A stretch of DNA of 62,761 nucleotides from Streptosporangiaceae bacterium (GTDB lineage Bacteria > Actinomycetota > Actinomycetes > Streptosporangiales > Streptosporangiaceae), in assembly GCA_050010815.1 (NCBI GenBank), contig JBEKKH010000001.1, forward strand, positions 1-62,761. The letters are read 5' to 3'. Positions 34,835 to 54,455 of the stretch are shown piece after piece. Numbering within the stretch: position 1 is the first letter of the stretch; each line of letters opens with the position of its first letter. Below the pieces are notes generated by a model, which worked only from the letters and a program-made list of their open reading frames with translations, searched no databases and was not told the origin of the DNA. The position numbers and the translations under genes were made by a program.

Positions 34835-35689
34835 TTCCCCGGCGGCCTGCGCGTCATCCGCGGCGAGCCGGTAGTAGGCGGGCATCAGCACCTCCGCCAG
34901 GTCCTTCCCCCTGACCTTGACCGGCGGCGGTGGAAACATACGCAGCAGCAGGTCGGGCGCGGCCGGGGCGGGTGCCGCGGCCAGCGCCCGCAGCCGGGCC
35001 GGGCTCAACCCGGGTGACCAGAACGCCTCCAGGCAGTCGGCGAGCGGCGCGGCCGGCACGTCGAGGCCGGCCGGGGACGGCCGGGCCGGAACCGCGGCCT
35101 CGATCTGGCGCAGCGCCGCGAGCAGCTCGTCGCGTCCCTTGCCGCGCCAGGCCAGCAAGCCGAACGGGTCACGGTCGAACTCCTCGGCCAGGACGTAACA
35201 GACGGCGGCCAGATGCTTGCACGGCACGCCCCAGTCCGGGCAGCTGCACCGCATGTCCAGGTCGCCGGCGCTGCGGGGAAACAACGGCGTGCCGCAGTCG
35301 TCGAACACCTCCTCGATCTCGTGCGGCATCTCGCCCGCGAGCAGCTTGGCCCGGAACAGCGCCTGGCTGGCCAGCCGTTTCTGCACGCGACGCCATTGCG
35401 CGGTGGTCAGCGGCAGGACCCCGATGCGGACCTGGTAGGGCCGCACCCGTGATCCCTGCACCTGGGCCGTGACCTTGCCCTGGGACAGCTCGAAGTCGAG
35501 CACCTGGCCGGCCCGGGCATAGCTGCGCCCCCGGGCCAGCCGGCCGCTCATGCCGTAGGACTCGAGCACGCTGATGAACCGCCGGGACCACCACTGCTCG
35601 CCGATCGCGCCCCGCTTGCTCCGGGCCTTGATCCCGCCCTCCACCCGGATCGTCCGGGCCGGCGGCCAGTCCCCCCACGAACCGGGCAT
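34817..35689 (-). CDS. SWIM zinc-finger protein (partner of the SNF2 helicase)
   Basis: The real start is the ATG at 35689 (MPGSWGDWPP...). SWIM motif CSCPDWGVPCKHLAAV. Its ATG overlaps the SNF2 stop (TAATG). Confidence 0.85.
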   Translation of the reverse strand: MPGSWGDWPPARTIRVEGGIKARSKRGAIGEQWWSRRFISVLESYGMSGRLARGRSYARAGQVLDFELSQGKVTAQVQGSRVRPYQVRIGVLPLTTAQWRRVQKRLASQALFRAKLLAGEMPHEIEEVFDDCGTPLFPRSAGDLDMRCSCPDWGVPCKHLAAVCYVLAEEFDRDPFGLLAWRGKGRDELLAALRQIEAAVPARPSPAGLDVPAAPLADCLEAFWSPGLSPARLRALAAAPAPAAPDLLLRMFPPPPVKVRGKDLAEVLMPAYYRLAADDAQAAGEQPGSV

Positions 35690-38600: not shown

Positions 38601-39003
38601 CCCCGTCCGCCAACGCCCCGTCCGCCAACGCCAGAGCTGCAGGAGCCAGAGCTGCAGGAGCCAGAGCTGCGGGGGGCTGGCCCAGCTGAGGTGAGGCGAG
38701 CGGCGCCCGGCCGGCCGATGGCAGCAGCAGCGTCAGCTCGTCATCGACGGCCTTGCGGGCGGCGCCGGCTCCCGGCCAGACCAGGCCGCCGAGCAGGCCG
38801 GCCAGCTCGGAGGCTGGCCAGGCGAAGGGGTGGGGCCGGAGGGTTCGCGGCGAGCCACCCCGGACAAAGCCCGCGGCCTGGTGCAGTACCGGGTCCTCGG
38901 CCCACAGGCAGAGCGCACCCTTCGCCCAGATCCCATGAAGGGTAGTGCTAGCTCTGCTGCTTTGCGCTTCCGCGGCCCTACCCACCTCCCCACGCCCCTT
39001 CAC
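35689..39003 (-). CDS. SNF2/DEAD-like helicase (HelZ-like), 1104 aa
   Basis: N-terminus LHGIWAKGALCLWAED, motif I DDMGLGKT, DEAQ box CDEAQNIKN, and helicase C motifs DRWWNPAVEDQATDRAFRIGQ. Confidence 0.9.
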   Translation of the reverse strand: MKGRGEVGRAAEAQSSRASTTLHGIWAKGALCLWAEDPVLHQAAGFVRGGSPRTLRPHPFAWPASELAGLLGGLVWPGAGAARKAVDDELTLLLPSAGRAPLASPQLGQPPAALAPAALAPAALALADGALADGALADRALADPVLAGPVRRGPVGRVSLARWRVPVLVFDPAAALDVLGRFSQLDEPAVTPGGSLPYLAAVARFAVDLAARGRVLPVLVSQGGTHAARWRPVLGGADGQRGRDLAAAMPPSCRAEPAGDELDGQPPGPLLAGALEVLTDAAVRSRLPASLLTARRGRSPARIPVAERFVVSLTTTDARIDVVTPQDEAEAEQLTAELGTWLDAARIPAGPVRTCFRLAEPPEPTGPESDLWRVEFALQSADDPSLMISAADVWAGHGSGFLGRAGASTGSAAAGRDPVEELLAGLGAAARLFGEVEVALRESAPAMVELDTPGAFRFLSQTGPLLSGAGFGVLMPDWVRKARLGLKLTTRSRASAGSSATVSRFGLGDLVDFRYDVAVGDEALDPAELAELARLKVPLVRIRGQWVELDEAHLAAALRFLERQQAGTMTAAQALAAGLNGPDDEVPLVGVDADGWLGDLLSGQADRRLAPMTTPAGFSGQLRPYQERGLSWLSFLGGLGLGGILADDMGLGKTIQLLSLLADQAGAGTVRSYGGVGSAPTLLVCPMSLVGNWQREAARFTPDLRVHVHHGADRLDADGLSAALADVDLVITSYGVVTRDRDALSQLTWARVVCDEAQNIKNHATRQARAVRALPAAARIALTGTPVENRLSDLWSIMEFTNPGLLGTAAKFREKYALPIERHGSPDAAQALKRVTQPFVLRRLKTDKTIISDLPDKQEMKIWCNLTPEQASLYAATVTDMLSRIAEAADDIGRRGLVLATMARLKQVCNHPAHLLGDGSRLAGRSGKLARLEEICDEIMADGDKALCFTQYAEFGRMLQPHLAARLGCPVLFLHGGTTKKQRDAMVATFAELDEPALFLLSLKAGGTGLNLTAASHVIHVDRWWNPAVEDQATDRAFRIGQHKNVQVRKFVCVGTLEERIDAMIEEKKALAQSIVGTGESWLTELSTDDLRAVLTLSPDAVSE
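38576..38672 (-). repeat. Two adjacent in-frame 15-bp tandem arrays inside the SNF2 N-terminal region
   Basis: TCCGCCAACGCCCC(G) about 3.8 times and AGAGCTGCAGGAGCC about 2.7 times, encoding (ALADG)n and (APAAL)n. Confidence 0.9.
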
Positions 39004-39293
39004 TGGCGCCGCCTTCCCTCGTCGCTCGTTCCTCGCTCCTCAGTCCAGGCGCCGCCGACGCCCCTTCAGCGCGACCTTAGCTCCGGGGTACGTCATTGGG
39101 GACCGGTAGCCGTGGGCCGCAGGATAGCCAAAAGTGACGTAAACGAAGATGGCGCGGCATCCGCGGCCGGCACGGCGGAAACTAGGGCCGGCTATGGCCG
39201 GCTCAACGGTTCATCGTACCGGGGCGGTGCCGGGTGAGAGCGAGGACCGGGCGACAAAGTAGGAGGTTGACCCGCTGAAGTGGTGCGGGTGGG

Positions 39294-39515
39294 TCAGCTG
39301 GGGGTGCTGGGACCGGTGACGGGTTCCTCGGCGTTACTAGCGGCGTCCTGGGGGACGGCGGCGGGATCGGGGGTGATCTTGCGGAACTGCTTGTTCATCG
39401 AGCGGAGCAGGAAGACAAGCACGACGGCGATGCCCGCCACCACGAGGAAGCCGAGCACCCCGGGCTCGACGTCGCTGACGGACGAGGAGGTCGCCGCGAG
39501 CACCCCGAACGTCAC
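39294..39515 (-). CDS. Small single-pass membrane protein
   Basis: GTG start overlapping the mca stop (GTGA). TM helix GVLGFLVVAGIAVVLVFLL. Confidence 0.6.
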   Translation of the reverse strand: MTFGVLAATSSSVSDVEPGVLGFLVVAGIAVVLVFLLRSMNKQFRKITPDPAAVPQDAASNAEEPVTGPSTPS

Positions 39516-40408
39516 AGGCTCACCCTCTCCCGGACGCCCGCGAACAGGTCGTCCTCTGGCAGATCGGTGTCGACCACCGACCTAGCCAGATGATAGTCCT
39601 CCGTCGGCCAAGCGGACCGCTGCACGTCGATCGGGCAGCGGAACCAGAAGCCAGCCGGGTCGACCTGGGTGGCATGCGCCTTCAGGGCCTGATCCCTGAC
39701 CTCGAAGAAGTCGCCGCACGGCACCCTGGTGGTGATCTCAAACTCGTGCTGGTCGTGCCCGCGCTCGGCCGCCCGGGCCGCCCGCTCCTCGAAGATCTTC
39801 GTGTACGGCGACTCCAGGCCGCGGCGGATCATCTCCTCGTGCAGGGCCACGAACTTCGCGCCGTGAAACGAGGCGAAGTAGTACAGCTTGAGCGGCTGCC
39901 ACGGCTCGCCGGAATCCGGGTACGCGTCCGGATCGGCGGCGGCCTCGAACGCCGCCACCGCGACCCGGTGGGTCATGATGTGATCGGGGTGCGGATAGCC
40001 GCCCTGTTCGTCGTAGGTGATCATCACGTGCGGCCTGAACTCGCGGATGGCCCGGACCAGCGGCTCGGCCGCCGCCGTCACCTCGGTGAGCGCGAAGCAG
40101 CCCTCGGGCAGCGGCGGCTTGGGGTCGCCCTCGGGCAGGCCGGAGTCGACGAAACCGAGGAAGCGCTGCTCAACGCCGAGGATCTCCCTGGCTCGCGCCA
40201 TCTCCGCCCGCCGCACGCCGGAGATGTCGGCCTTGATCTCTGGACGGTCCATGGCCGGGTTCAGGATGTCGCCGCGTTCCCCGCCGGTCATCGTGGCCAC
40301 CAGCACCTGGGCACCCTCGCGGACATAGCGCGCCATCGTCGCGGCGCCCTTGCTCGACTCGTCGTCCGGGTGCGCGTGCACGGCCATCAGCCGAACCTGG
40401 TTTTGCAA
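39512..40408 (-). CDS. mca: Mycothiol S-conjugate amidase
   Basis: RLMAVHAHPDDESSKGAATMARY and later HPDH motifs of the LmbE/Mca family. TTG start preceded by GAGGGAGA. Confidence 0.9.
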   Translation of the reverse strand: MQNQVRLMAVHAHPDDESSKGAATMARYVREGAQVLVATMTGGERGDILNPAMDRPEIKADISGVRRAEMARAREILGVEQRFLGFVDSGLPEGDPKPPLPEGCFALTEVTAAAEPLVRAIREFRPHVMITYDEQGGYPHPDHIMTHRVAVAAFEAAADPDAYPDSGEPWQPLKLYYFASFHGAKFVALHEEMIRRGLESPYTKIFEERAARAAERGHDQHEFEITTRVPCGDFFEVRDQALKAHATQVDPAGFWFRCPIDVQRSAWPTEDYHLARSVVDTDLPEDDLFAGVRERVSL

Positions 40409-40614
40409 CAGGGGTCTCCCTCACTTAAACCTTCAGTCCCGCCAACACCCGTTCACCTGCACGACATTCCCCAGTCGGGGGTCATGGCGCGGTTCTCCCA
40501 TTTGACTCCAGCGCTCAAGTCGCCGACGCTAGTTAGCCTCAGACAGATTAACCCCCCGAGGACCGACCCACGGTCCCGCGGACTTTACGTCCTGCGCAGT
40601 ACCAAGGAGTGCCC

Positions 40615-41115
40615 GTGACTGAGACGCGCGACGATACCGTCACCTGGTTGACCCAGGAGGCGTACGACCGGCTCAAGGCCGAGCTTGACCACCTTTCAGG
40701 ACCGGGGCGCGTCGATATCGCGAAGAAGATCGAGGCGGCCCGCGACGAGGGCGACCTGAAGGAGAACGGCGGCTACCATGCGGCCAAGGACGAGCAGGGC
40801 CAGATCGAGGCGCGGATCCTCCTGCTCATGCACATCCTGGAAAACGCCCGGGTGGGCGGGCCGCCGCGCACCGACGGCGTGGTCGGCCCGGGCATGACCG
40901 TCACCATCCGGTTCGTCAAGGACGACGACGAGGTGACGTTCCTGCTCGCCTCCCGCGAGGAGAGCGGCTCGCCGATCGACGTCTACTCGCCTCGCTCGCC
41001 GCTCGGGGCCGCGATCTCGGGTAAGAAGGTCGGCGAGCGGGCCACCTACTCGCTGCCGAACGGCCGCCCCTGCACCGTCGAGATCCTGGAGGCCGTCCCG
41101 TACGTCGGGGTGTAA
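40615..41115 (+). CDS. greA: Transcription elongation factor GreA
   Basis: VTWLTQEAYDRLKAELDHL...EGDLKENGGYHAAKDEQ. The GTG at 40615 lies 7 nt after AAGGAG. The ORF-track GTG at 40609 abuts the RBS. Confidence 0.95.
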   Translation: MTETRDDTVTWLTQEAYDRLKAELDHLSGPGRVDIAKKIEAARDEGDLKENGGYHAAKDEQGQIEARILLLMHILENARVGGPPRTDGVVGPGMTVTIRFVKDDDEVTFLLASREESGSPIDVYSPRSPLGAAISGKKVGERATYSLPNGRPCTVEILEAVPYVGV

Positions 41116-41196
41116 AAGCCAAAACCTTTGGGCCGAACGGGCCGTGGTCTTCCCGACCACGGCCCGCGCGGTCTGGCGGGTGGTTGCGCTGGGTGC

Positions 41197-42846
41197 TTAC
41201 GATACGAGTTCGGCCTGCTGGCTGGGGGTTTCCCCGGCTCCCTGGACGGGCGTCCGGCCGCGCAGCGGAACCTCCTTGATCAGCAAGGCCAGCACGAAGA
41301 TGAGCACTCCGGCAGGCGCGGCGAAGATGAACACGCCCTGGACCGCGTGCGCGATGGCGTAGAACACGTCATGCTTGATCGGCGCGGGCAGCTTGTTGAC
41401 CACGGTGGGATCAAGCTGGCCGCCGCTCACGTTGACGTGTACCCCGTTCCCGACCGCCGTGCGCAGCGAGGCGGTCAGCCGGCTGGCGAACAGCGCGCCG
41501 AACGCGGACACGCCGAGCGACCCGCCGATCTGCTGGAAAAACATCCGGGCGCTGCTGGCTACGCCCATGTCCTGGGGCTTCACGCTGTTCTGGGCGATCA
41601 GCGAGACCATCTGCATCAGGAAGCCCATGCCGAGGCCGAGCACGACGTAGTACAGGCCCGATGTCGTGCGGCTGGTGTCGACGCCCAGCCTGGTCAGCAG
41701 GAACAAGCCGACGGTCATGATGGCCCCGCCCAGGACCGGGAACAGCTTGTACCGGCCGGTCCTGGTGGTCACCTGACCCGACAAGATGGAGGTGACCGTC
41801 ACGCCGAGCATCATCGGGGTCAGCATCAGCCCGCTGACCACGGCCGACGCACCCTGCACGGTCTGCTGATACAGCGGCAGGAACGTCATCGCGCCGAACA
41901 TGGCCAGGCCGGTGAGGAACGTCAGCGCCATCGTGACCGAGAAGTTCCGGTTCCGGAAGACGTGCAGCGGCAGGATCGGCTCGGCCGCCCTGGTCTCGGT
42001 GACCAGGAACCCCGCGGTGGCCGCCACGGCGATCACGCCAAGGCCGATGATCTGCACCGAACTCCAGGCGTACTCGCTGCCGCCGAAGGTGGCCAGCAGG
42101 ATGACCGCGATCGCGGCCACGGCGAGCAGCCCGCCGCCCAGGTAGTCGATCGTGTGGCTGACCTTCTTCGCGGGCACGTGCAGGACGGCGAGCAGGTAGA
42201 TAAGCGCCGCGCCGCCCAGCGGGAGGTTGATGTAGAAGATCCAGCGCCAGGAGAAGCTGTCGGTGATGAACCCGCCGGCCAGCGGGCCGCCGATCGTGGC
42301 GAGCATCATCACCACCATCATGTAGCTCATGTAGCGACCGCGCTCGCGCGGCGCCACGATGTCGCCGAGCGTGGCCATCGCGCCGACCATGAGGCCGCCT
42401 GCCCCTAGGCCCTGGATCGCGCGGAACGCGATGAGCTGCGCCATGTCCTGCGACAGGCCGGACAGCGCCGAGCCGGCTAGGAAGATCACGATCGCGAAGA
42501 TGAACAGCTTCTTGCGGCCGTACATGTCGCCGAGCTTGCCGTAGAACGGCGTGGTCACGGTCGAGGCCAGCACGTACGCGGTGACCACCCAGGCCAGGTG
42601 GGTCACCCCGCCCAGGCTGCCCACGATCCGCGGCAGCGCCGTTCCCACGATGAGCTGGTCGAGCATGGCCAGCAGGATCGCCATCAGCAGTCCGGGCAGC
42701 ACGATCAAGACCTCGCGCCGGTCCGCGTACTGCGTCCCGTCCGCCCCCGGCCCGCCTGCCCCGGCCGCCCCCGGCCCGGCTATCCCCGACCCGCCGGGCC
42801 CGGCCGTGCCCGACCCGCCCGCTCCGTCGCCCGTTGCCTCCGCCAC
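41197..42846 (-). CDS. MFS transporter, DHA2 (EmrB/QacA, 14-TMS) type
   Basis: MLDQLIVGTALPRI, 14 hydrophobic segments. The GTG at 42846 with GGAAGGAG 6 nt upstream is preferred over the TTG at 42906. Confidence 0.85.
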   Translation of the reverse strand: MAEATGDGAGGSGTAGPGGSGIAGPGAAGAGGPGADGTQYADRREVLIVLPGLLMAILLAMLDQLIVGTALPRIVGSLGGVTHLAWVVTAYVLASTVTTPFYGKLGDMYGRKKLFIFAIVIFLAGSALSGLSQDMAQLIAFRAIQGLGAGGLMVGAMATLGDIVAPRERGRYMSYMMVVMMLATIGGPLAGGFITDSFSWRWIFYINLPLGGAALIYLLAVLHVPAKKVSHTIDYLGGGLLAVAAIAVILLATFGGSEYAWSSVQIIGLGVIAVAATAGFLVTETRAAEPILPLHVFRNRNFSVTMALTFLTGLAMFGAMTFLPLYQQTVQGASAVVSGLMLTPMMLGVTVTSILSGQVTTRTGRYKLFPVLGGAIMTVGLFLLTRLGVDTSRTTSGLYYVVLGLGMGFLMQMVSLIAQNSVKPQDMGVASSARMFFQQIGGSLGVSAFGALFASRLTASLRTAVGNGVHVNVSGGQLDPTVVNKLPAPIKHDVFYAIAHAVQGVFIFAAPAGVLIFVLALLIKEVPLRGRTPVQGAGETPSQQAELVS

Positions 42847-42890
42847 CCGTCGCTCCTTCCGGCCCGTTTCGCGGCCGGCCCGGTGCGTTG

Positions 42891-42944
42891 ACTTACCGGC
42901 CGGCAAGTCATTATCCTAAAATCGCTACTTACCGGCCGTCAAGT
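42891..42944. promoter_or_regulatory. Two copies of an 18-bp near-palindrome (candidate TetR operators)
   Basis: ACTTACCGGCCGGCAAGT (42891-42908) and ACTTACCGGCCGTCAAGT (42927-42944), in the MFS/TetR divergent intergenic region. Confidence 0.5.
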
Positions 42945-42985: not shown

Positions 42986-43555
42986 ATGCACGACGCGGCA
43001 GCCAGGCCGCGGACCGGTACGCGGGCCCGCGTCCAGCAGGTGGCGCTCGAGCTCTTCGCCGAGCAGGGGTACGAGAAGACGTCGCTACGCGAGATTGCCG
43101 AGCGCCTGGGGGTAACCAAGGCCGCCCTGTATTACCACTTCAAGTCCAAGGACGATATCGTCCACAGCTTCACCGACGACTATTTCGCCGAGTTCGACGC
43201 GCTCGTGGCGTGGGCCATCGAGCAGCCACGGAGCGAGGCGACCCGGCGCGAGATGCTTAACCGTTACGCGGGGATCGTACTGGCCGGCCATGAGGTCTTC
43301 CGCTTCCTTGAGCAGAACCGTGCCTCGGTCGAGACCATGCACGGCGGAAAGGACCGGTTCGCCCGCTTCCGCGACCGGCTCGACGACCTCGTCGACGCGC
43401 TGGTGGGCTCCGACGCCCCGCTGCGAGACCGGGTGCGGGCCAGCACGGCCGTGCTGGCGGTCGGCGCGACCTGCCGGTTCTACCTGCGGCAGGCGGACGA
43501 TGAGGACAAGCTGCGCGCCATCGTGCTGGAGATAGCCACCGACCTCACCAGCTGA
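42986..43555 (+). CDS. TetR-family transcriptional regulator
   Basis: RVQQVALELFAEQGYEKTSLREIAERLGVTKAALYYHF. Confidence 0.9.
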   Translation: MHDAAARPRTGTRARVQQVALELFAEQGYEKTSLREIAERLGVTKAALYYHFKSKDDIVHSFTDDYFAEFDALVAWAIEQPRSEATRREMLNRYAGIVLAGHEVFRFLEQNRASVETMHGGKDRFARFRDRLDDLVDALVGSDAPLRDRVRASTAVLAVGATCRFYLRQADDEDKLRAIVLEIATDLTS

Positions 43556-43589
43556 ACCCCCGGCCCGGCCGCACCGCGACGCCGCCCGG

Positions 43590-44190
43590 CTAGGGGAAGA
43601 AGGTCAGGAATCCGCCGGAGTCGGCCGGGGGCGGCGGAGGTGCAGCGGATGTAGGCGTGACCTCGACGTCCACCCAGTAGTTCGGGGCGCCGCCGGTGTC
43701 GTACGTGCCGGGGTAGGCGAAGGCCGATCCCTGGTTATAACTGCTCTGGCCGAGGCTGCTGGCCGCCGACTCGTTCGGCGCCGAAAGCGGGCCGCTTGAA
43801 ATCCCGCCGCCGCCCAGGCCGGTGGACCAGTAATTGAGCGTGGCCGAGTTCCAGGAGTCCGGATTGGCCGCGCCGTTGAACACCGCCACCTTGTAATAGC
43901 CACCGGGGACCAGCGTGACGCCCGCGCTGCTGTAGTCGCACGACACCCAGCCACTGCCGGCCCGCGTTCGTGTCGTCGACCTGCCACAGGGCGAACGACT
44001 GCGCGCTGGTCTGCTGGCCCGAACCGCAGACCCACCACCAGAACCCCTCGAACCAGAGGTTGGCCGCGGTGACCTGGAAGGCGATCCCGGCGAGATAATT
44101 TCCGCTGTGGGAGGCCGCGGTTGACGGGCCGTTACCGGGACGCCCGCCGACGCCGTCCATCAGTTTGCGGAACGGCACTTTCGGCCACAT
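43590..44190 (-). pseudogene. DUF4082-like protein gene split by a frameshift near 43955-43965
   Basis: ORF 43735..44190 (..NYLAGIAFQVTAANLWFEGFWWWV..ALWQVDDTNAG) continues in another frame as ORF 43590..43946 (SCDYSSAGVTLVPGGYYKVAVFNG..). A one-base shift in the GCGGGCCGG run restores ..TNAGSGWVSCDYSS.. Confidence 0.5.
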
Positions 44191-44211
44191 TCGACCGGGT
44201 GGATCCCACGG

Positions 44212-45840
44212 CTAAGCCCGTCCTGGCCTAGCGGCCCGCCGTAGCCAGGCCAGGACGGGCTTGGTGTCACCGTGGTCCAGGACGTAGGCCACCGCGCCGA
44301 ACGCGATGACCGCGCAGCTGGCCGCGACCACGGCGGTACCGGCCGCCAGCAGCTTGCCGCCCACCGGCGCGGCCAGGCAGATGCTCACGCCCACGGCGGC
44401 GCTGACCGCTCCGGCCGCCAGCCCGGCCAGGGTCGCGCGGCGGACGCCCTGCAGCGCCGCCCGGCCGCAGATCCGGCGGGTCGCTATCACCACCGGGACG
44501 GCCACCACGGTCTCGCCGATCGTGTACCCCAGGGCGAGCGCGGCCACGACCAGCCGGGCCGGAGCCAGCTCGGCCAGGACCACGTCGGCCGCGATCACCA
44601 GCAGCGAGCTTCCGGCCAGCGCCGCGGCCGCGACCTTGAGCCGCCCGATCGCGAACATCACCCGCGACAGGTTCGTGATCACCGCGACGCCCGCGATGCC
44701 GGGCGCGAACAAGACGAACGCCTCTATCAGCTCGGGCCTTTGATCCGGTTGCCGGGCCAGGACATGAGCGGCGGGAATGGCGATCGCCGCGATCACGGCG
44801 GTGCCGAGCCAGGACAGCAGCAAGACCGCCCGGGTCGAGCCCGCGCAGGTCCGGTCGAACACCGGCCCGTCCCGGGCGGCCAGGACCGGGAACACGCTGA
44901 CCACGACGGAGGTGGCCAGGACCGAGGAGACCGAGCTGAACACCTGCCAGGCGTAGTTGTAGATGACGATCGCGCCCGTGGACCCGCGTCCGTTGGCCAG
45001 GGTGATGGTGACCACGGAGGACAGGTCGATGACGACGAGCTCGACCACGCCGACGAGCGCCAGGCCGCCCGCCCGGCGGGCCACCCCGGGCGGGAACCGC
45101 AGCGCGGGCCGGAACCGCAGGTGCAGCCGCCACGTCGGCACTACGCCCACGGCCACCAGCGCGGCGATGCCCAGCGTGGTGCCCGCCGACAAGACCAGCT
45201 CGGCTGACAGCGGCATCTCCGATAGCGGGAGCCCCCGGCTCAGGGGCACGAAGGCCAGGCAGGCCGCGATCACCACGAGGCTGGCGACGGCCGGCCCGAG
45301 GGCGGGTCCGGTGAACCGGCGGTACGCCTGCAGCAGGCCGTAGAGGACGACCGATAGCCCGTACAGGAGGACCTGCGGGGCGAACACCTGAAGCATGTGA
45401 CCGGTGGCGTTGACTACGTCGGCCCGGACGCAGTGCGCGTTCTTATTGCCGGGATTCAGCAGCGAGGCGATCGGCCCGGCCAGCGCCGCGACCACCAGGG
45501 TCAGCGGCACCAAGATGACCACAGACCAGGTCAGCAGCGCCGAGGAAATCTGGCCGACGCGTGCCTTTTCCGCCGGATCGGCCGCTGACCGCTCGGCCGG
45601 GCGTGCCAGTACCGGGATCATCGCGCTGGTCAGCGCGCCGCCGAGGACCAGTTCGTAGACCAGGCTCGGCACCTGGTTCGCGGTGACGTAGGCCGTGCCC
45701 AGGCAGCTCGCCCCGACGGTCTGCGAGAACACCAGCGTGCGGATGAGCCCGAACAGCCGGGACAGCAGGGTCAGGCCCGCTATCAGCGCGGCCCCGCGGG
45801 CGATGCCCGCGGCGGGCCGCTGCGCCAGATCAGAGGTCAC
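44212..45840 (-). CDS. murJ: Lipid II flippase MurJ/MviN family
   Basis: LSRLFGLIRTLVFSQTVGASCLGTAYVTANQVPSLVYELVLGGALTSAMIPVLAR, about 14 TM segments. Confidence 0.8.
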   Translation of the reverse strand: MTSDLAQRPAAGIARGAALIAGLTLLSRLFGLIRTLVFSQTVGASCLGTAYVTANQVPSLVYELVLGGALTSAMIPVLARPAERSAADPAEKARVGQISSALLTWSVVILVPLTLVVAALAGPIASLLNPGNKNAHCVRADVVNATGHMLQVFAPQVLLYGLSVVLYGLLQAYRRFTGPALGPAVASLVVIAACLAFVPLSRGLPLSEMPLSAELVLSAGTTLGIAALVAVGVVPTWRLHLRFRPALRFPPGVARRAGGLALVGVVELVVIDLSSVVTITLANGRGSTGAIVIYNYAWQVFSSVSSVLATSVVVSVFPVLAARDGPVFDRTCAGSTRAVLLLSWLGTAVIAAIAIPAAHVLARQPDQRPELIEAFVLFAPGIAGVAVITNLSRVMFAIGRLKVAAAALAGSSLLVIAADVVLAELAPARLVVAALALGYTIGETVVAVPVVIATRRICGRAALQGVRRATLAGLAAGAVSAAVGVSICLAAPVGGKLLAAGTAVVAASCAVIAFGAVAYVLDHGDTKPVLAWLRRAARPGRA

Positions 45841-46085
45841 GGCACCGCCAGGCCCCCACCCGCTAGTTTGCTCATCCCGGGCGCGGATCGCCGCGGGCCA
45901 GCCGCCGGCCCGCGGCGCAGGATCCGCGATCGGCCACGATACGGCACGCTAACGGGACGCACGATGCATCTGACGGAATTACCTGGCCGGGGTGTTCGCG
46001 GCGGCCCGGACCGACGGCAGGACAACTCAACGGTGTGAAAGATAAAGACATCACAGGCTGAGCCCGACCTTAGCTAAGCCTGGAC

Positions 46086-48110
46086 ATGGACGAGAGAAGG
46101 CACCGACGATATGTTGTGCCTAGTGATTTTATCCAGTTCGGCCTGCGCGAGATGGGGGAGGGCGCGGTGAGAACTTCGATTGTCGGGCTGCAAGGTGACC
46201 TGGTCGGCATGCGCTTCGCGATCGGCGAGGCGCCGGTCACGTTTGGCCGTGAGGAGGACAACGACGTCGTTATCAACGATCCCCTGGCCTCACGCTGGCA
46301 CGCCGAGCTCCGGCAGGAGGCCGACGGCTATGTCCTCACCGACCGGCACAGCAGCAATGGCACCTGGCTGAACGGTGCCACCATTACCACTCACTATCTC
46401 CGGTCAGGCGACGAGATCACGATCGGCGACCAAAAGTTCCGCTTCGAGGTGTCGGATCCACGAGCCACGATTCAGCGCACAGGCCCGGGGTCGCCCGTTG
46501 GGTCGTCCGCCGAGCCGTTCGATCCCGCGTCCGTCTTGAGGGTTATCGTCAGCGGTGGCGGCCCCGTCGGCCTGACCTTCGCATTGCTGCTGGCAGACCT
46601 GATGGGACCGAGAGTGGCCATCAGGATCCACAACGGCCGCTGGAAGCGCGACGGCGACCAGGTGGTGTGGAAGGGACCGGAAGAGCGCAACACGCGGCGC
46701 CAGCAGGTTGTGACCATTCAGAGCCGCCAGTACCTCAAGCTCCCGCAGGAGATGCAGGACCATCTGTTCACCGCTGGTAACTTCACTGAGACATGGCCCA
46801 AGGGGCCTGACTCGATCCGCGACCACGGCCCGCGCAATATCCGCATCGCCCACGTTGAGGACCGCCTACTCGACCTCGCCAACCGCAAGCGCGGCCAGAT
46901 CGAGCTCATCCCTGAGCCTTTCGACGCTGAATCGGCCCACGAGGAGATAGCCGACGCGCACGTGCTGGCGATCTGCGAGGGCAGCCGGTCCCGCACACTC
47001 ACGCATTTCTCCGGTAAGTTCGGCGCGGCCGATCCGACCTTTTACGGGCTCGACGGCGAGCAGGTCGCCGACATGGTGCTTGGCCTGCGGGTGAAGTCGC
47101 TGCTGCCCGACCCTATGGCGGTCCTGCTGACGGTGGCGCAGAACCGGTTCCTGCTGAACTCGCTGCGCGGCGAGGGATTCCTGAACGTGCGGCTCACCAC
47201 CCAGGAGGCGAAGGAAGCCGTCGGGATCGACCCGATCAGGCAGCTGTTCACCGGTTGCATCCAGACCGAGCCCTGCTTGCTTGAGCGCGCCCCGGGCGGG
47301 GAGTTCATATGTGGCACGCACCACACCTTGTTCCTGCCGGCCTTGCTGCGAGGGTCGGCGTTCTGGTCGCGGATGCTGGAAGGGCTCGCGCTGTTCGGCG
47401 TCCCGGCGGAGAACCTGACCGCCGTGACCGCCTTCCAGCTGAGCATGGTGCAACGGCCGCGGTTCTCGGTCCGGTTGTTCCCGCGCACCCCGACGACGCC
47501 GGGTACGTTCGGCTTCCTGCTTGGCGATGCGGCCAACGCCATCCACTTCTGGCCCGGGCGCGGCCTGAACAGCGGGCTGGCGTCGGCGATCTCCCTGGCC
47601 CGGTGCCTGGCCAAGCCCCGGAGCGGCGCGCCGCTGCGGGACGCCGACTTCGTCCGGCATGAGGCCGTGATGTCCATGCTGCAGTACCGGCACAAGAGCC
47701 GGGCCTGGCTGCAGATGGTCACCGCCGATGACAACGGTAACTTCCGCGCGATCAAGGACATCATCGCGCAGGGCATTGCCGAGGGCGACGAAGGGAACTA
47801 CGACCTGGCGGCCGACCGTGACGCGCTGCTGCGTCGGCTGTTCCAGATCCGGGAGCGCTTGACATCGCGCATCGAGGGATTGCCCGACGACGCCAAGCTG
47901 CGCACGCACCTGGATTCGCTCAGCGGTCCGCTGATCCATACCCTGCTGGTCAGCGGCCCGTGGGACACCGCGAACGTCGGCGGTGAAGAGGTCGATGTCG
48001 ACTGGCTCTTCACCGAACCGCAGGCGGGGCAGTCGGCCGTCTCCAGCCAGTCGCCCCGTCTGCTCAGTGAACCCAACACCGCCCCTAGCTCCCAGCTCGC
48101 ACACCAGTAG
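46086..48110 (+). CDS. FHA domain fused to a group-A flavoprotein monooxygenase-like domain
   Basis: FHA signature: TFGREEDNDVVINDPLASRWHAEL...SSNGTWLNG. FAD fold: VIVSGGGPVGLTFALLLADL and LLGDAANAIHFWPGRGLNSGLASA. The start may instead be the GTG at 46167, which has a GGGGGAGGG RBS. Confidence 0.8.
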   Translation: MDERRHRRYVVPSDFIQFGLREMGEGAVRTSIVGLQGDLVGMRFAIGEAPVTFGREEDNDVVINDPLASRWHAELRQEADGYVLTDRHSSNGTWLNGATITTHYLRSGDEITIGDQKFRFEVSDPRATIQRTGPGSPVGSSAEPFDPASVLRVIVSGGGPVGLTFALLLADLMGPRVAIRIHNGRWKRDGDQVVWKGPEERNTRRQQVVTIQSRQYLKLPQEMQDHLFTAGNFTETWPKGPDSIRDHGPRNIRIAHVEDRLLDLANRKRGQIELIPEPFDAESAHEEIADAHVLAICEGSRSRTLTHFSGKFGAADPTFYGLDGEQVADMVLGLRVKSLLPDPMAVLLTVAQNRFLLNSLRGEGFLNVRLTTQEAKEAVGIDPIRQLFTGCIQTEPCLLERAPGGEFICGTHHTLFLPALLRGSAFWSRMLEGLALFGVPAENLTAVTAFQLSMVQRPRFSVRLFPRTPTTPGTFGFLLGDAANAIHFWPGRGLNSGLASAISLARCLAKPRSGAPLRDADFVRHEAVMSMLQYRHKSRAWLQMVTADDNGNFRAIKDIIAQGIAEGDEGNYDLAADRDALLRRLFQIRERLTSRIEGLPDDAKLRTHLDSLSGPLIHTLLVSGPWDTANVGGEEVDVDWLFTEPQAGQSAVSSQSPRLLSEPNTAPSSQLAHQ

Positions 48111-48141
48111 CGGGAGCGAGCCGGCGGCCTAGCGCGCAAAC

Positions 48142-49479
48142 TTAGTGGGCGGCTCCGTATCGCAGGCCGAAATCAGCCGAAGAGTGATAGACGGTGAACA
48201 TCTTCGGGAGCACAAAGATGGCCAAGATGGCGAGCACGATGATCGCCACGACGACGGCCACGATGATAAGCGTGCGGCGGCGGTCTGAGGACGGGCGCGC
48301 CGGTATCACGGCCGCGGTCTGAGGGCTGGCGGTCTGAGGGCTGGCGGTCTGAGGGCTGGCGGCGATTCCCCCGGTTCCCTGGGTGGGGGCGTGGGACAGC
48401 GGGTATTCACGCTCTCCGGTGACAATCCCGGACTCGGCAGGCGCGATGGTAGGCGAGGCACGCCTAGGTCCCGACGGGTATCCAGCGGCGCTGATGATCG
48501 GCCCGGCATCCATGATGGGGACCTGCTCGGCCGACATCCAGCCCGGGCCCCAAGCCTGAGTGCCCGCTTCAGCTAGTGCCGTTCCGAAGGATTCGGCCGT
48601 CCCGAACCGATCGGCCGACTCGGTCGCCAGCCCCCGCATCACCGCCGCCGCCACTGGCTCCGGCACGCCGGGCGCCACCTCGCGGAGCGGTACGGGCTGC
48701 TCATAAGCGTGCTGGAAGAGCAGCGCCATGTCATCCTCCACGTCGGGGAAGGGCAGGACGCCGGCCAGCAGCTCGTACAGCATCGTCGCCACCGCGTACA
48801 CATCGGTCGCGGGCGATAGGTCCCCGCCGCGTGCTTGTTCCGGGGCCATGTACGCCGGCGTTCCGATCACGTCGCCGCGGCGGGTGAGGACGGTGCCCGG
48901 ACCGCCGAGCACCTTGGCGATACCGAAATCGGCGACCTTCAGGACCTCGCTGGCGGAGAAGAGCATGTTCTCGGGCTTGACGTCGCGGTGCAGCACCCCG
49001 TGCCGGTGCGCCGCGCTGAGTCCGCTCAGGCAGGCCAGCGACACCGCCACCGCATGCGGACCGGTGAAGCCGCCTGCAGCAGTGACCTGGCTTCGCAGGG
49101 TCCCGCCGGGAAGGAATTCCATCACGAGCAGGCAGATGCCCTCGCGTTCGACGAAGTCGTAAACGGGCACGACATGAGGATGATCGAGGGAGGCAAGGAC
49201 GCGGGCCTCCGATATGAAACGGCGCCGAACCGCCGGGTCGGCGGCAAAGGCCACCGGAAGCTGCTTGATCGCCACCCGCCGGTCAAGCTGCCGGTGCTGG
49301 CCAGAGACCACTACCCCCATGCCACCGGAGCCCAGCTCCTCGCCGATGTCATATGCCGGCAGCGCGTTACTGAGTAGCTCGCGGTCAAAGCTCATGAGAC
49401 GGGCCGCCCTTTCTGCAGGCGGCTGAATCGGGCCCAGGCTCCCAATGGCGGAGATCCGCGAGCCGACCTGCCCGATCAT
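48142..49479 (-). CDS. Ser/Thr protein kinase, C-terminally membrane-anchored
   Basis: GSGGMGVV, VAIK, HRDVKPENML, DFGIAK and GTPAYMAPE. The C-terminal TM helix TLIIVAVVVAIIVLAILAIFVL leaves only about 20 residues beyond it. An alternative ATG start is at 49395. Confidence 0.9.
   Translation of the reverse strand: MIGQVGSRISAIGSLGPIQPPAERAARLMSFDRELLSNALPAYDIGEELGSGGMGVVVSGQHRQLDRRVAIKQLPVAFAADPAVRRRFISEARVLASLDHPHVVPVYDFVEREGICLLVMEFLPGGTLRSQVTAAGGFTGPHAVAVSLACLSGLSAAHRHGVLHRDVKPENMLFSASEVLKVADFGIAKVLGGPGTVLTRRGDVIGTPAYMAPEQARGGDLSPATDVYAVATMLYELLAGVLPFPDVEDDMALLFQHAYEQPVPLREVAPGVPEPVAAAVMRGLATESADRFGTAESFGTALAEAGTQAWGPGWMSAEQVPIMDAGPIISAAGYPSGPRRASPTIAPAESGIVTGEREYPLSHAPTQGTGGIAASPQTASPQTASPQTAAVIPARPSSDRRRTLIIVAVVVAIIVLAILAIFVLPKMFTVYHSSADFGLRYGAAH
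48314..48358 (-). repeat. 15-bp in-frame tandem repeat, 3 copies, in the kinase linker
   Basis: GCGGTCTGAGGGCTG three times, encoding (SPQTA)3. Confidence 0.9.
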
Positions 49480-49568
49480 AGCCCCCAGGACTGCGGGTTT
49501 TCATTTTCGGCCCCCCAGCGTGCCGTCAGTCACGGGACCGCCAGTCACACGGCACCGGCCGACCGGTC

Positions 49569-50612
49569 TCACCGTGCAACGCCCGGCCCGGTGAGCTCGA
49601 GGGTGAATACCTGCCGGCCGATGCGCAGGCTCCAGCCCGGGGGCAGCCGGCTCGGCTCCGTGCCTACCGGTGTCCACTCGCTGGCCCCCGGCGGGCTGAT
49701 ATAGGTCCCGTGGACCGAGGAGGCGTCGCGGACCAGGACGATCCCGTTCTCGACGGAGATGTAGGCGTGCACGCGCGAGATCATGTTGTCCGGATCCGGC
49801 ATCAGAACCGGTGAGGAAGCGCCGCTGACCACCGCGGGGTCCTGATGCGGCTCACGGCCGAGGACGTAGGCACGATCCAGGATGATGACCGGCCCCTGCT
49901 CCGACGTCAGCACGCCCAGCGGCGTCTTTGCCGCCACCGTGAGGCGGGCGGGCGGGATCTGGGCTTCCGGCGGCACCCCCGCCGCCACGGTAAGGCGGGC
50001 GGCCGGGGGCGTACCGGCGCGCTCGGGGCGCGAGCCCGTCTCCGCCAGGATGGTCGGCTTGCGAGCTTCGGCCGGAGCTGCCGCGGCCGGGACCGGTTCC
50101 GGACCGGGGGCGGCCGCGAGCCGGGTCAGGACGAAGCCCTGTCCGGGTACCACCCCGTCCCGCAGGTCTGACCACGGGTCTGCCTGCACGGCCTGGCCGG
50201 CCGTGCTGCCGATCGCAAGCCGCTCGAACGTGCCGGGGATGATTTGGTCTACCCAGGTCAGGGCCTGTTCTCCGGACAGCTGACGGACCGAGTCCGCCTC
50301 GGTGACCGCGCACCACACTGCGCCGCGCAAGAACGTGACGACGCCGTCAGCTACGGGTGTCACCATCCCGAACGCGGTGGCATCCGCGGGCATGCGGTCG
50401 ATAACCCAGGCGGCCAGCCGGGCCGCGATCGCGCTGGCCGGCCGTTGGCGGTCCGAGGCCACGTCGGCGGCCAGGCCGAGGAGCTCCCGGGCGGCCTCGT
50501 CAGCGCCGTCGGCGGCTGCGGCGTCCCGCGGGATCAAGATGACCGTGTCGCCGAACCGGCCGACGAGGCCGCGGCCTGGCTCGATGCCTATGCGCGTCGT
50601 CAACTGTTCCAT
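49569..50612 (-). CDS. Protein with an unknown N-terminal domain, a Pro-rich duplicated linker and a C-terminal FHA domain
   Basis: Real start is MEQLTTRIG (ATG at 50612, RBS GAGGGGAG). FHA signature: YVLGREPH...[10 protein letters not shown]...SSVHGTYI. The linker repeats [10 protein letters not shown] / PPARLTVAA. Confidence 0.8.
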
Positions 50613-50665
50613 CGCGCTCCCCTCTTCGCAGTTGGCAGCGGACCCCGGGGCATCGGTGAAGGTAG

Positions 50666-51226
50666 TCAGGAGTGCACCCCCTTGGTGGCGAACAGCCACA
50701 GCGCCGAGGTCGCCCACAGCGCGATCAGCGACACGAAGACCACGCCGCCCATGACCGGAAGGACCCACTTGGGCATGGCGTCGCGCCGGACGAGACATAG
50801 CATCTTGGTCACGAACGCGCCGTAGAAGATGCAGCCGAGCACCGAGTGCGCGATCACGCGGGCTGAGTAAGTCCCGAAGCCTAGCGCGTAGATGCAGTGG
50901 ATGATGACCGGCACCGTGAGCAGGATCGCGATCCGGCCCGACCAGCGGTGCACGATGGCCATCCAGGCCGGGGCGGCCCGCCGGGTGATCCGGGCACCGG
51001 TGATGAGCTGGACGATCGCGAACACGACCGCGACGGTAGTCAGCCAGGCTTTGGCGTACAACGGCGAGGAGAAGCCGCCGACGTCGAGCGCGTACTTGGT
51101 CGGATGGTGCAGCTTGGCGTACAAGCCCAGCACCAAGGCGATCCCGCAACCGCTGAGCAGGGCCACCAGGAGCGGCTTGGCGTACTGGTCACGGGCGGGG
51201 TACGCCGCCACTGGTTCGCTCGTCAT
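50666..51226 (-). CDS. Polytopic membrane protein (resembles the actinobacterial DUF6529 family, from memory)
   Basis: 186 aa starting at [10 protein letters not shown], with 5 predicted TM helices and His residues inside or at helices ([22 protein letters not shown]). Confidence 0.65.
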
Positions 51227-51269
51227 CGCGGTTCCTTTCACAGGCCGGGTGGCTGCGCCACCTCGGGTC

Positions 51270-52184
51270 TCACGGGCTGACGACGGTGTCTTGGCCGGCG
51301 ACGGGGGCGGCGGTGAAGCTGGAGCCGTCCAGCGCGAAGCCGTTGGTGCTGAGGTTGAGCGGCGGTGCCGGGTATTTGGTCGTGCCCGCGACGGCCACTC
51401 CGACCTGCGTCCCGTCGGGCAGCACCGCCCAGCCGATGCGTGTGGCCAGCCCGTTGACCGCAATCCGGGCCTGGTAGACGCCGGCTGGGCGCGGGGACAG
51501 CTCGGCTGAGAACGGGAAGCTCAGCCCGGCGCCCGCCGTGACCGTACCGAACATGTCCAGGCCGGACAGGGAGCCGGTCAGCCTGGCCCCCTTGTTGCCG
51601 GCCAGGCTGACCTGGTTGCCGTTCACCGAGCCCTGCAACCAGGCCTCGATGGTCTTGCCGTTGCAGATGTAGGCCGCAGCCTTGTCGCCTTCGGTGTCGA
51701 CCGCCAGCGTCACTTGGTTGCCGCTGCTCCGGCCGGTGTACACCGCTTGCACGACGGCCTGCGCGGCGGAGAACGGGAAGCTTTGCCCCAAGAATCCCGT
51801 GACCGTGCCGAACATATTCTGGCCGGAGATCGAACCGGTCAGGCCCGGGCCGTTCTGGCTGGTCAGGGCGAACTTGCCACCGTTCACCGAACCCTGCAGC
51901 GACACTTCGCTGGCCTGGCCGGCGTTCAGGTCGGCGGCGACCTTGTGCCCGTTGATAGCGATCGCCACGGTCACCTGGTCACCGCTGCTCCGGCCCGCGT
52001 ACAGGGCATGCAGCGGGGCCGCTGTCGTGGCCGGCCCTGTCGTGGCCGGCCCTGTCGTGGCCGGCCCTGTCGTGGCCGGCCCTGTCGTGCTGCCCGGCTT
52101 GGCCACCTGGGTGTTGGCCAGAAGGAATACCACGGCGAGCACCAGCACGGAGCCCAGCGTGATCAGGGGTCCTTGTCTGGTCAT
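51270..52184 (-). CDS. N-terminally anchored extracytoplasmic protein with three tandem copies of an unknown module of about 90 aa
   Basis: TM helix [16 protein letters not shown], (GPATT)4, then two clear repeats ([39 protein letters not shown] and [39 protein letters not shown]) plus a degenerate third. An alternative GTG start is at 52202. Confidence 0.7.
52023..52090 (-). repeat. 15-bp in-frame tandem repeat, 4.5 copies
   Basis: TGTCGTGGCCGGCCC four times, encoding (GPATT)4. Confidence 0.9.
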
Positions 52185-52584
52185 TCCCTTACCGCCTCTC
52201 ACCCTCAGTCGCGGTAATGCCGACGATTACATTCCCGGCGCCGTTCACGGCGCGCTACGTTAAGACCGGAGCTGATCTCTCGACACGGGTCGAGAAACGC
52301 GAGTGGCGGTACAGGAAAGAAATACTGTTCTTGTAAGCACCCGAATACACACAGTGCCTGTTAGCTGTCTTGACCGAGCTGAAGCGGGGTAAGGACGCCT
52401 TGGCGCCGATATCGACAGCGACCCGTTCCCGGCCAGCCAGTCTGGATCATTGGTCACACCAGGAACCCGTGGTACGCCGCGATAAACGTACCGCTGGATC
52501 GGGGATCCAACATCGAGTGGCCACCGAGATCACCGAACTCGCCGCCCACTGACCGCCGAGGCACGCCTTACTGCGCCTGCCGAA

Positions 52585-52757: not shown

Positions 52758-53246
52758 CTATAGTCCGGCGGCGGCGCGGACTAGGGGGAGGACGCGGTAG
52801 GGGACCTGGGCGGCCAGCGAGATCAACGTGGCCGAGCGGACCACACCCTCGGCGGACACGATCTTGTCGATCACGCGTTGCAGGTCCGCGTTGGAACGGG
52901 CCACCACCCGGCAGAGCATGTCACCCGCCCCGGTGATCGTGTGCACCTCGAGCACCTCGGGGATCGCGCTCAGCCGCTCCGCGACCGGATCGTGCCCGCC
53001 CGCCTGGCTGATCTCGATGGTGATGAACGCGGTGACCTCGTAGCCGAGCGCCGCCGGATCCACCTCGGGCCCGTAGCCGGTGATCACGCCCCGGTCGGTC
53101 ATCCGGTCCAGACGCGCCTGCACGGTGCCGCGCGCCACCCCGAGCCGCCGGGAGGCCTCGAGCACGCCCACCCTCGGCTCGGCCGCCAGCAGTTCGATGA
53201 GCGCCGCATCAAGCCGGTCGATCGCCTCCGGAGCACTGGTGGTCAT
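52758..53246 (-). CDS. Lrp/AsnC-family transcriptional regulator
   Basis: The last 162 codons of ORF 52758..54371: LDAALIELLAAEPRVGVLEASRRLGVARGTVQARLDRM plus a RAM domain. Confidence 0.9.
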   Translation of the reverse strand: MTTSAPEAIDRLDAALIELLAAEPRVGVLEASRRLGVARGTVQARLDRMTDRGVITGYGPEVDPAALGYEVTAFITIEISQAGGHDPVAERLSAIPEVLEVHTITGAGDMLCRVVARSNADLQRVIDKIVSAEGVVRSATLISLAAQVPYRVLPLVRAAAGL

Positions 53247-53300
53247 GTTGTACACATGTACCACTGCCCGTTCGGAATAAATAGGCAAGCTGACTAGTGA

Positions 53301-54455
<1,155 letters not shown>

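Follow-up and report, generated by a model that had tools for sequence, protein, structure and literature searches.

Actinobacterial serine/threonine (Ser/Thr) signaling has known targets in the cell wall, the tricarboxylic acid cycle, and transport. In the PknB-FhaA-MviN module, MviN is fused to an intracellular pseudokinase domain bearing a phosphothreonine that is bound by FhaA. The ferric-reductase-domain, STEAP, MsrQ (YedZ), and cytochrome b561 families act as trans-membrane electron conduits and include MsrPQ with its flavin reductase Fre, and in Escherichia coli the genes for YceJ (cytochrome b561 family) and YceI (a secreted beta-barrel) form a pair. Modules of Ser/Thr protein kinases (STPK) with FHA proteins and conduits of the ferric-reductase/b561 type are both known kinds of system already. 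The FhaA-MviN precedent in the Mycobacterium tuberculosis PknB-FhaA-MviN(MurJ) module was reportedly set out by Gee et al. 2012. The locus analyzed here lies in a 62,761-nucleotide stretch of contig JBEKKH010000001.1 from a Streptosporangiaceae bacterium (assembly GCA_050010815.1; positions 1 to 62,761, forward strand; G+C content, ~70%), referred to below as the window. Its core is a minus-strand operon, REP3-DUF6529-X_FHA-STK, that encodes an extracytoplasmic protein, a five-helix membrane protein, an FHA adaptor, and a Ser/Thr kinase. Sequence comparison suggests that this operon is a clade-specific paralogue of an envelope redox module, held by Trebonia-related soil actinomycetes. The nearest relatives of the window come from uncultured actinomycetes of soil and peat that carry the annotation Trebonia or Streptosporangiaceae; metagenome-assembled genome (MAG) GCA_003168295.1 is one of them.

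The four-gene operon and the generic DUF6529 module

DUF6529 served as the anchor for a scan of one genome per species, from which 80 loci were fetched (loci of other genomes are given L numbers). At least 581 actinobacterial genomes encode a relative of the DUF6529 protein, among them genomes of Streptomyces, Nocardia, Micromonospora, Amycolatopsis, and some Mycobacterium; the family amounts to 765 clusters at 50% identity, and a full-text literature search for DUF6529 found no paper. A REP3 homologue stood directly upstream of DUF6529 in 78 of the 80 loci. Flanking genes were called with a GC3-based gene caller, the high-GC DNA giving many spurious open reading frames (ORFs) and plain ORF clustering having missed the Rieske gene. 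Of 75 called genes lying directly downstream of generic DUF6529 on the same strand, 60 were assigned to Rieske by Pfam (best E value, 6e-16), and tblastn located a Rieske gene at 71 of 78 generic loci (L013 to L090; examples are L014:10594-11073 and L019:10548-10973). These Rieske proteins are 140 to 200 amino acids (aa) long, with a twin-arginine (RR)/lipobox (LAGC) signal, which indicates export, and CTHQGC...CPCHGS motifs. No other neighbor family was widely shared at the generic loci, the best being adenylate cyclase (10 of 126 neighbors). Judged from these sequences, the generic module consists of a signal-anchored beta-rich exoprotein, DUF6529, and a Rieske [2Fe-2S] lipoprotein exported by way of its twin-arginine/lipobox signal; it is pan-actinobacterial and apparently undescribed. 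Its most likely role is trans-membrane electron transport, with predicted cofactor binding. A trans-membrane redox role is the most economical reading because the Rieske association, the STEAP/b561 fold matches and Pfam side-matches of DUF6529 (see below), and its near-invariant His and Cys residues all point to it.

Ten genomes from several orders also have, on the strand opposite to the REP gene and ~1 to 3 kb upstream of it, a gene for an adenylate/guanylate cyclase of ~650 to 700 aa (L017, L043, L044, L050, L054, L059, L063, L068, L069, and L074). They echo the cyclase and cyclic nucleotide monophosphate (cNMP) genes of the kinase-linked clusters.

At kinase-type loci, X_FHA follows DUF6529 in the position where generic loci have the Rieske gene, and a tblastn search of the window and of every kinase-type locus found no Rieske gene. 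The first domain of REP3 is duplicated in the kinase type, and kinase-type DUF6529 proteins are 73 to 96% identical within their clade versus at most 60% identical to generic copies. Since one MAG holds both module types (L011, kinase type; L014, generic), the kinase-linked set is a paralogue. REP3-DUF6529-X_FHA and an orthologue of the kinase stay together in at least six flanking contexts, across X_FHA identities of 54 to 88%, with the order and orientation of the first three genes kept down to ~54% X_FHA identity; kinase orthologues in the same cluster of relatives are 66 to 92% identical. Among X_FHA loci in metagenomes, DUF6529 lay upstream in 24 of 65 informative cases and X_FHA stood alone in the other 41. 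All 23 X_FHA genes with DUF6529 upstream and enough downstream sequence were followed by STK (14), an FHA-cyclase (7), or an FHA-Pyr_redox_2 gene (2), compared with 0 of 29 X_FHA genes lacking DUF6529, although these counts are not phylogenetically independent.

In one relative, L174, the flanks are those of the window (PALP, glyoxalase, AsnC ... TetR) and enclose a long-form cluster made up of REP3, DUF6529, X_FHA, FHA-cyclase, FHA-Pyr_redox_2 (convergent), cNMP-binding, STK, cNMP-binding, and GH15 genes. Finding the long form within these flanks suggests that the window arrangement is probably a reduced derivative into which a different FHA-flavoenzyme was inserted. Two other loci are degenerate (L106:622-1863 and L173:7801-9215): X_FHA stands alone between AsnC/TetR-type flanks, REP3 and the kinase having been lost, and in L173 a 48-aa DUF6529 remnant lies upstream of X_FHA.

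An earlier note, made from the window sequence alone, had listed six ORFs here, and all six were recovered at its coordinates, from which its intergenic gaps of 43, 53, 89, 31, and 245 bp follow. Its domain calls also held in Pfam (two FHA domains, Pkinase, a borderline FAD_binding_3, and MurJ), and its membrane protein was modeled with five helices. A scan of the locus for promoters and terminators gave no signal exceeding shuffled expectation.

REP3 (51270 to 52184, minus strand), the first gene of the operon, encodes a signal-anchored, extracytoplasmic, beta-rich protein with no Pfam family and no PDB sequence match. An N-terminal transmembrane helix is followed by a (GPATT)x4 linker, an in-frame tandem peptide repeat (~52026 to 52085, minus strand), then by two ~86-aa repeats and a C-terminal subdomain. 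The protein had been described as having three repeats, of which two are real (residues 56 to 146 versus 147 to 232; z = 33.6); the C-terminal region is not a repeat (z about 0). Residues Y..AYxCxG..E.W.G are invariant in the family.

The DUF6529 protein (50666 to 51226, minus strand) has five transmembrane helices and is a putative conduit for heme or another redox cofactor. It scored 203.7 bits against PF20139, covering profile positions 2 to 170 of 171, and its AlphaFold2 (AF2) model has five helices at a predicted local distance difference test score (pLDDT) of 90.6. Conserved residues are H93-R94, H110-C111, H127, and K141; H93-R94, C111, and H127 are nearly invariant among 34 family members, and the window protein keeps H93, C111, and H127. 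The best Foldseek match of the model in the PDB was STEAP1 (probability, 0.92; E value, 0.14; TMq, 0.44); STEAP2 and cytochrome b561 came next. Weak Pfam side-matches to four membrane families that bind heme or are related to such families (Cytochrom_B561, DUF4079, Ferric_reduct, and DUF4405) were each seen in 2 to 6 of the 34 members (E values, 0.003 to 0.02).

The X_FHA adaptor (49569 to 50612, minus strand) joins an unmatched N-domain to a C-terminal FHA domain (PF00498; 29 bits) through a disordered linker. Its phosphothreonine-pocket residues are kept and are invariant in the alignment (G252-R253, S279-R280-x-H282, and G302-T303). The N-domain (residues 1 to 165) is highly conserved and rich in invariant residues; its alignment returned only noise in Pfam at E values of up to 10 and no PDB sequence match, and it showed no similarity to the Rieske proteins that hold its slot in generic loci. 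The linker is rich in Pro, Ala, and Thr and highly variable in length, with a nearly invariant T225. There are more than 1,000 X_FHA homologues.

The kinase gene, STK (48142 to 49479, minus strand), encodes a tail-anchored Hanks-type Ser/Thr kinase (PF00069; 160 bits). The motifs GSGGMG50, VAIK69, HRDVKPEN164, DFG184, and APE212 are intact and a C-terminal transmembrane helix is present, which bears out the earlier description of a tail-anchored enzyme with complete catalytic motifs; only a ~20-aa extracytoplasmic tail follows the helix, with no extracytoplasmic sensor domain. An in-frame juxtamembrane tandem repeat, (PQTAS)x3 (~48313 to 48363, minus strand), is a candidate array of Thr phospho-acceptors. 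Against the PASTA kinase model for PknB/Stk1 (NF033483), the protein scored 263.5 bits, under the cutoff of 450, and it has no PASTA repeats. PADLOC models gave up to 282 bits for PD-T4-6 and 224 bits for mad6, both generic Hanks-kinase matches, and NCBIfam MAD6 gave 137 bits, under its cutoff of 460; such generic matches could mislead automated defense annotation. In L011, an extra truncated kinase gene lies upstream of REP3 (L011:7403-8095).

FHA-tagged flavoenzymes and other neighboring genes

Convergent with the kinase gene is FHA_FAD (46086 to 48110, plus strand), an accessory, lineage-specific neighbor encoding a GarA-like FHA domain and a divergent, putatively group-A-type flavoprotein. 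M23 (46152) is the probable start, the alignment with homologues beginning at residue 24. The FHA domain scored 66 bits and has the pocket residues G54-R55, S69-R70-x-H72, and N91-G92-T93; it is nearest to GarA/OdhI at 31 to 32% identity, with the same fold match in Foldseek, and PDB entry 3oun (the FhaA FHA/Rv3910 complex) is among its structure matches. FAD_binding_3 (PF01494) scored 22.1 bits against a cutoff of 22.0, with no single stretch passing alone. Flavoprotein motifs are GGGPVG157, CEGSRSR297-303, and GDAANAIHFWPGRGLN480-495, the invariant C-E-G-S-R-S-R standing in place of the DG motif. Profile matches to TetX, MtmOIV, and RebC in the PDB were weak (E values, 0.003 to 0.2), and FHA domains took up the list of Foldseek matches, which is therefore uninformative on the flavoprotein domain. 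FHA_FAD has more than 1,000 homologues. Relatives in which it adjoins the kinase are all at least 90% identical, and homologues at 84%, 75%, and 68% identity stand alone in three unrelated neighborhoods.

FHA-tagged flavoenzymes of two nonhomologous families recur beside the operon in the same neighborhood. The other family, FHA-Pyr_redox_2 (L009:12801-15914, minus strand; also in L010, L012, L171, L174, and L175), comprises proteins of 1,035 to 1,037 aa with an FHA domain, ~8 transmembrane helices with CxxCxxCxxxC, a Fer2-like segment, Pyr_redox_2, and Rubredoxin_C. By its domain content, this protein is itself a predicted membrane electron-transfer protein. In long-form clusters, it is always flanked by genes for an FHA-adenylate/guanylate cyclase and a cNMP-binding protein. 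Neither for a group-A-type flavoprotein nor for a membrane Fe-S/Pyr_redox_2 reductase do we know of a described fusion to an FHA domain.

The earlier note had proposed that kinase, adaptor, two envelope proteins, and FHA-flavoenzyme might be one five-gene set linked to murJ and possibly acting on cell-wall export. Of these, the kinase and X_FHA do form a conserved unit with REP3 and DUF6529 across the six or more flanking contexts. The five-gene set does not: FHA_FAD is gone from the near relatives L101 to L105 and L011, and its 68 to 84% identical homologues lie elsewhere. The link to murJ also fell away. The gene in question (44212 to 45840, minus strand) encodes a MurJ-family (MOP flippase) protein of 542 aa with a MurJ domain at residues 39 to 466, and is not part of the module. 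At 132 bits against the Pfam cutoff of 27.4 and 122.5 bits against the cutoff of 235.55 for the TIGR01695 equivalog, it passes only the broad family and is thus a MOP/MurJ-family paralogue of uncertain substrate; no kinase-like or pseudokinase domain was found in it with Pfam. Together with a short ORF, it is carried by a genome-specific 2.5-kb insertion (43546 to 46072, minus strand). By blastn, TetR and FHA_FAD lie ~15 nucleotides apart in L005 and L093 (88 to 92% identical DNA), with no such insertion, and murJ and FHA_FAD are both missing from L103 and L011; the insertion occurs in no other cluster locus examined. Among the loci of relatives, only that of L008 was seen to have a MurJ-family gene; this copy is nonorthologous, sits at the opposite end of the cluster, and is 69% identical, versus ~90% for its neighbors. 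Linkage of MurJ to the operon was rejected on these grounds, and from the sequence comparison we regard the gene as a bystander. Also inside the insertion, at 43590 to 44190 (minus strand), are overlapping short ORFs (118 to 151 aa) with no Pfam match and no counterpart in relatives.

Farther out, window positions 35689 to 42906 hold genes for an SNF2 helicase with DUF3670, a PIG-L deacetylase, GreA, and an MFS transporter with a divergent TetR, in synteny with L005 and L103. On the other side, a mechanically called 537-aa ORF (52758 to 54371, minus strand) is an overextension; the real AsnC/Lrp regulator has ~162 aa (52764 to 53246) and is 93% identical to that of L005. A glyoxalase-family gene (53313 to 54455, plus strand) lies on the strand opposite to the AsnC/Lrp gene.

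Proposed mechanism and competing explanations

The reading that we tentatively prefer, drawn from gene content and conservation, is that the operon encodes a paralogue of a trans-membrane redox module that may have been coupled to phosphothreonine signaling through X_FHA, the kinase, and FHA-flavoenzymes. A duplicate of the generic module would have lost its Rieske gene, duplicated a REP domain, and become co-operonic with X_FHA and the kinase. The membrane-tethered kinase would phosphorylate threonines, candidates being its own PQTAS repeats, the X_FHA linker including T225, and a clade-conserved cytoplasmic MT(S/T)xP tail of DUF6529, and FHA domains would dock on the resulting phosphothreonines. 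This could bring X_FHA and FHA-tagged NAD(P)H flavoenzymes together on DUF6529, gating electron entry into the membrane conduit. The flavoenzyme would be the group-A-type flavoprotein here and the 1,037-aa FHA-Pyr_redox_2 reductase in sister lineages, where FHA-cyclase and cNMP-binding proteins accompany it. Observed directly are the domain content, the conservation patterns, and the Rieske association, including a catalytically intact kinase that lacks a sensor and two FHA proteins (three at other loci) whose phosphothreonine pockets are intact. Heme or other cofactor binding, the phospho-acceptors, the docking partners, and the direction of information flow are the parts of this model that we infer. 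The idea of a phospho-signaling module with a redox enzyme and envelope proteins, put forward in the earlier note, is kept in so far as the kinase, adaptor, and envelope proteins are co-conserved and FHA-flavoenzymes recur beside them; its fixed set of five genes and its murJ component are not. A farther-reaching version, that REP-DUF6529-Rieske is an unrecognized electron-conduit family and that kinase-made docking sites recruit X_FHA and interchangeable FHA-tagged NAD(P)H flavoreductases onto the paralogue, with Ser/Thr phosphorylation as the direct switch for trans-membrane electron export or redox sensing, strikes us as doubtful.

Several observations count against the coupled redox module. 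The kinase-type paralogue has no extracytoplasmic Rieske partner, and REP3 has no obvious cofactor motif. For DUF6529, H110 occurs in only 25 of 34 family members (absent in 9), no sequence match to any solved structure was found, and the Foldseek matches are weak (E values, 0.14 to 1.4; TMq, 0.28 to 0.46; root mean square deviation, 13 Å for STEAP1). On the flavoenzyme side, three short fingerprints underlie the assignment of FHA_FAD as a monooxygenase, and the AF2 model is confident for the FHA and Rossmann parts, with pLDDT below 50 in the putative substrate domain (residues 315 to 458). One insertion, in a lineage at least 90% identical, accounts for the adjacency of FHA_FAD to the kinase, and in L101 to L105 and L011 no FHA-flavoenzyme lies beside the four-gene operon. 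X_FHA is not dedicated to DUF6529, given that it stands alone at most of its loci, and the nonindependence of the co-occurrence counts reduces their weight.

The main rival, which we consider possible if rather unlikely, turns the flow of information around: REP3 and DUF6529 would be an extracytoplasmic and membrane redox sensor for a kinase that has no sensor of its own, X_FHA would relay the signal, and the FHA-enzymes and cNMP-binding proteins would be outputs. This would fit the ~20-aa extracytoplasmic tail of the kinase, which leaves REP3 and DUF6529 as the only exposed components of the operon, and loss of the Rieske acceptor fits the loss of a throughput function. The cyclase and two cNMP-binding proteins of long-form clusters resemble a signaling cascade, and adenylate cyclases adjoin generic DUF6529 in 10 genomes. 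However, the cofactor-candidate residues of DUF6529 are all retained, and two unrelated NAD(P)H flavoenzymes in one slot are simpler to explain as equivalent donors than as equivalent outputs. The data do not separate the sensor from the conduit direction.

Chance adjacency, MurJ control, and phage defense are less likely. The operon genes might be merely co-transcribed, or chance neighbors in an indel-prone region, with no function in common: these genomes are rich in STPK and FHA genes, which would land beside the REP3-DUF6529 pair by chance, and the stretch between AsnC and TetR is an indel hot spot in which murJ, FHA_FAD, the FHA-cyclase/reductase/cNMP genes, and GH15 are variably present. 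The degenerate loci L106 and L173 and the solitary X_FHA genes of the metagenome set agree with such a view, which is nevertheless improbable given the order and orientation of REP3-DUF6529-X_FHA kept in six or more contexts of diverged sequence, the 23-of-23 versus 0-of-29 pattern, and the short gaps (43 to 89 bp) between the genes. PknB-FhaA-MviN-like control of the adjacent MurJ flippase and of cell-wall export, as first proposed, could draw on the divergent MurJ-family gene 245 bp from FHA_FAD and on the FhaA-like architecture of X_FHA (globular N-domain, long disordered linker, C-terminal FHA domain). We consider it highly improbable: the murJ insertion is missing in L005, L093, L103, and L011, the L008 copy sits on the other side of the cluster, the 542-aa protein falls under the equivalog cutoff and has no pseudokinase domain to bear a phosphothreonine site, the X_FHA N-domain matches neither the FhaA N-domain family nor any other Pfam family, and the kinase has no PASTA domains. 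With the insertion, the missing pseudokinase, the subcutoff score, and the nonorthologous L008 copy, the FhaA-MviN analogy fails on every testable defining feature. Least probable of all, to the point of being barely credible, is an antiphage defense island around a PD-T4-6 or MADS-like kinase. The PADLOC and MAD6 scores that would recommend it come from the generic kinase domain alone, and none of the other four proteins matched a PADLOC model. This is a chromosomal locus with housekeeping genes at its flanks and synteny in relatives, and it has no methylase, nuclease, or other known-system partner.

Comparison with known systems

If the preferred reading of a coupled redox module is right, the targets of actinobacterial Ser/Thr signaling would extend to extracytoplasmic redox chemistry. 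Hanks-kinase/FHA signaling would then be wired to a membrane redox module, with FHA-tagged flavoenzymes as exchangeable parts, and the DUF6529 family would gain its first functional handle. The most useful product is a testable prediction for the widespread generic trio: the near-universal REP-DUF6529-Rieske arrangement predicts trans-membrane electron transfer in culturable model actinomycetes. The analysis also removes a tempting but wrong MurJ/FhaA analogy for this locus. To our knowledge, there is no earlier description of the STPK/FHA-plus-conduit combination, of the REP-DUF6529-Rieske trio, or of fusions between FHA domains and flavoenzymes, and we know of no phosphothreonine-gated assembly among bacterial respiratory-type or ferric-reductase-type proteins.

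With PknB-FhaA-MviN, the locus shares a Hanks kinase, an FHA adaptor of the same architecture, and a polytopic membrane protein as the presumed docking partner. The conserved membrane partner here is, however, DUF6529/REP3 and not MurJ; the MurJ paralogue lacks a pseudokinase domain and sits in a genome-specific insertion, the X_FHA N-domain is not of the FhaA N-domain family, and the kinase is without PASTA repeats. A phosphothreonine-reading domain fused to an enzyme or controlling one is common ground with GarA/OdhI, DgcB (FHA-GGDEF), and Rv1747 (FHA-ABC transporter). The YceJ-YceI pair, a possible lead, likewise couples the gene for a membrane b-type cytochrome to that for a secreted beta-rich protein, but there is no detectable homology and YceJ-YceI comes without Rieske, kinase, or FHA components.

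Closest to the generic module are the ferric-reductase-domain, STEAP, MsrQ, and b561 families, for which we know of no kinase or FHA coupling. Common to both is a small heme-type membrane protein (heme being putative for DUF6529) without a reductase domain of its own, an extracytoplasmic redox partner encoded alongside (the Rieske protein in the generic module), and a separate cytosolic flavoenzyme as the presumed feeder. DUF6529 differs in having five helices rather than six, a His pattern of H93, H110, and H127 with an invariant Cys, and sequence and fold scores that are not significant. Compared with MsrPQ, in which the partner is a molybdoenzyme, generic DUF6529 is partnered by a Rieske lipoprotein and a beta-rich protein.

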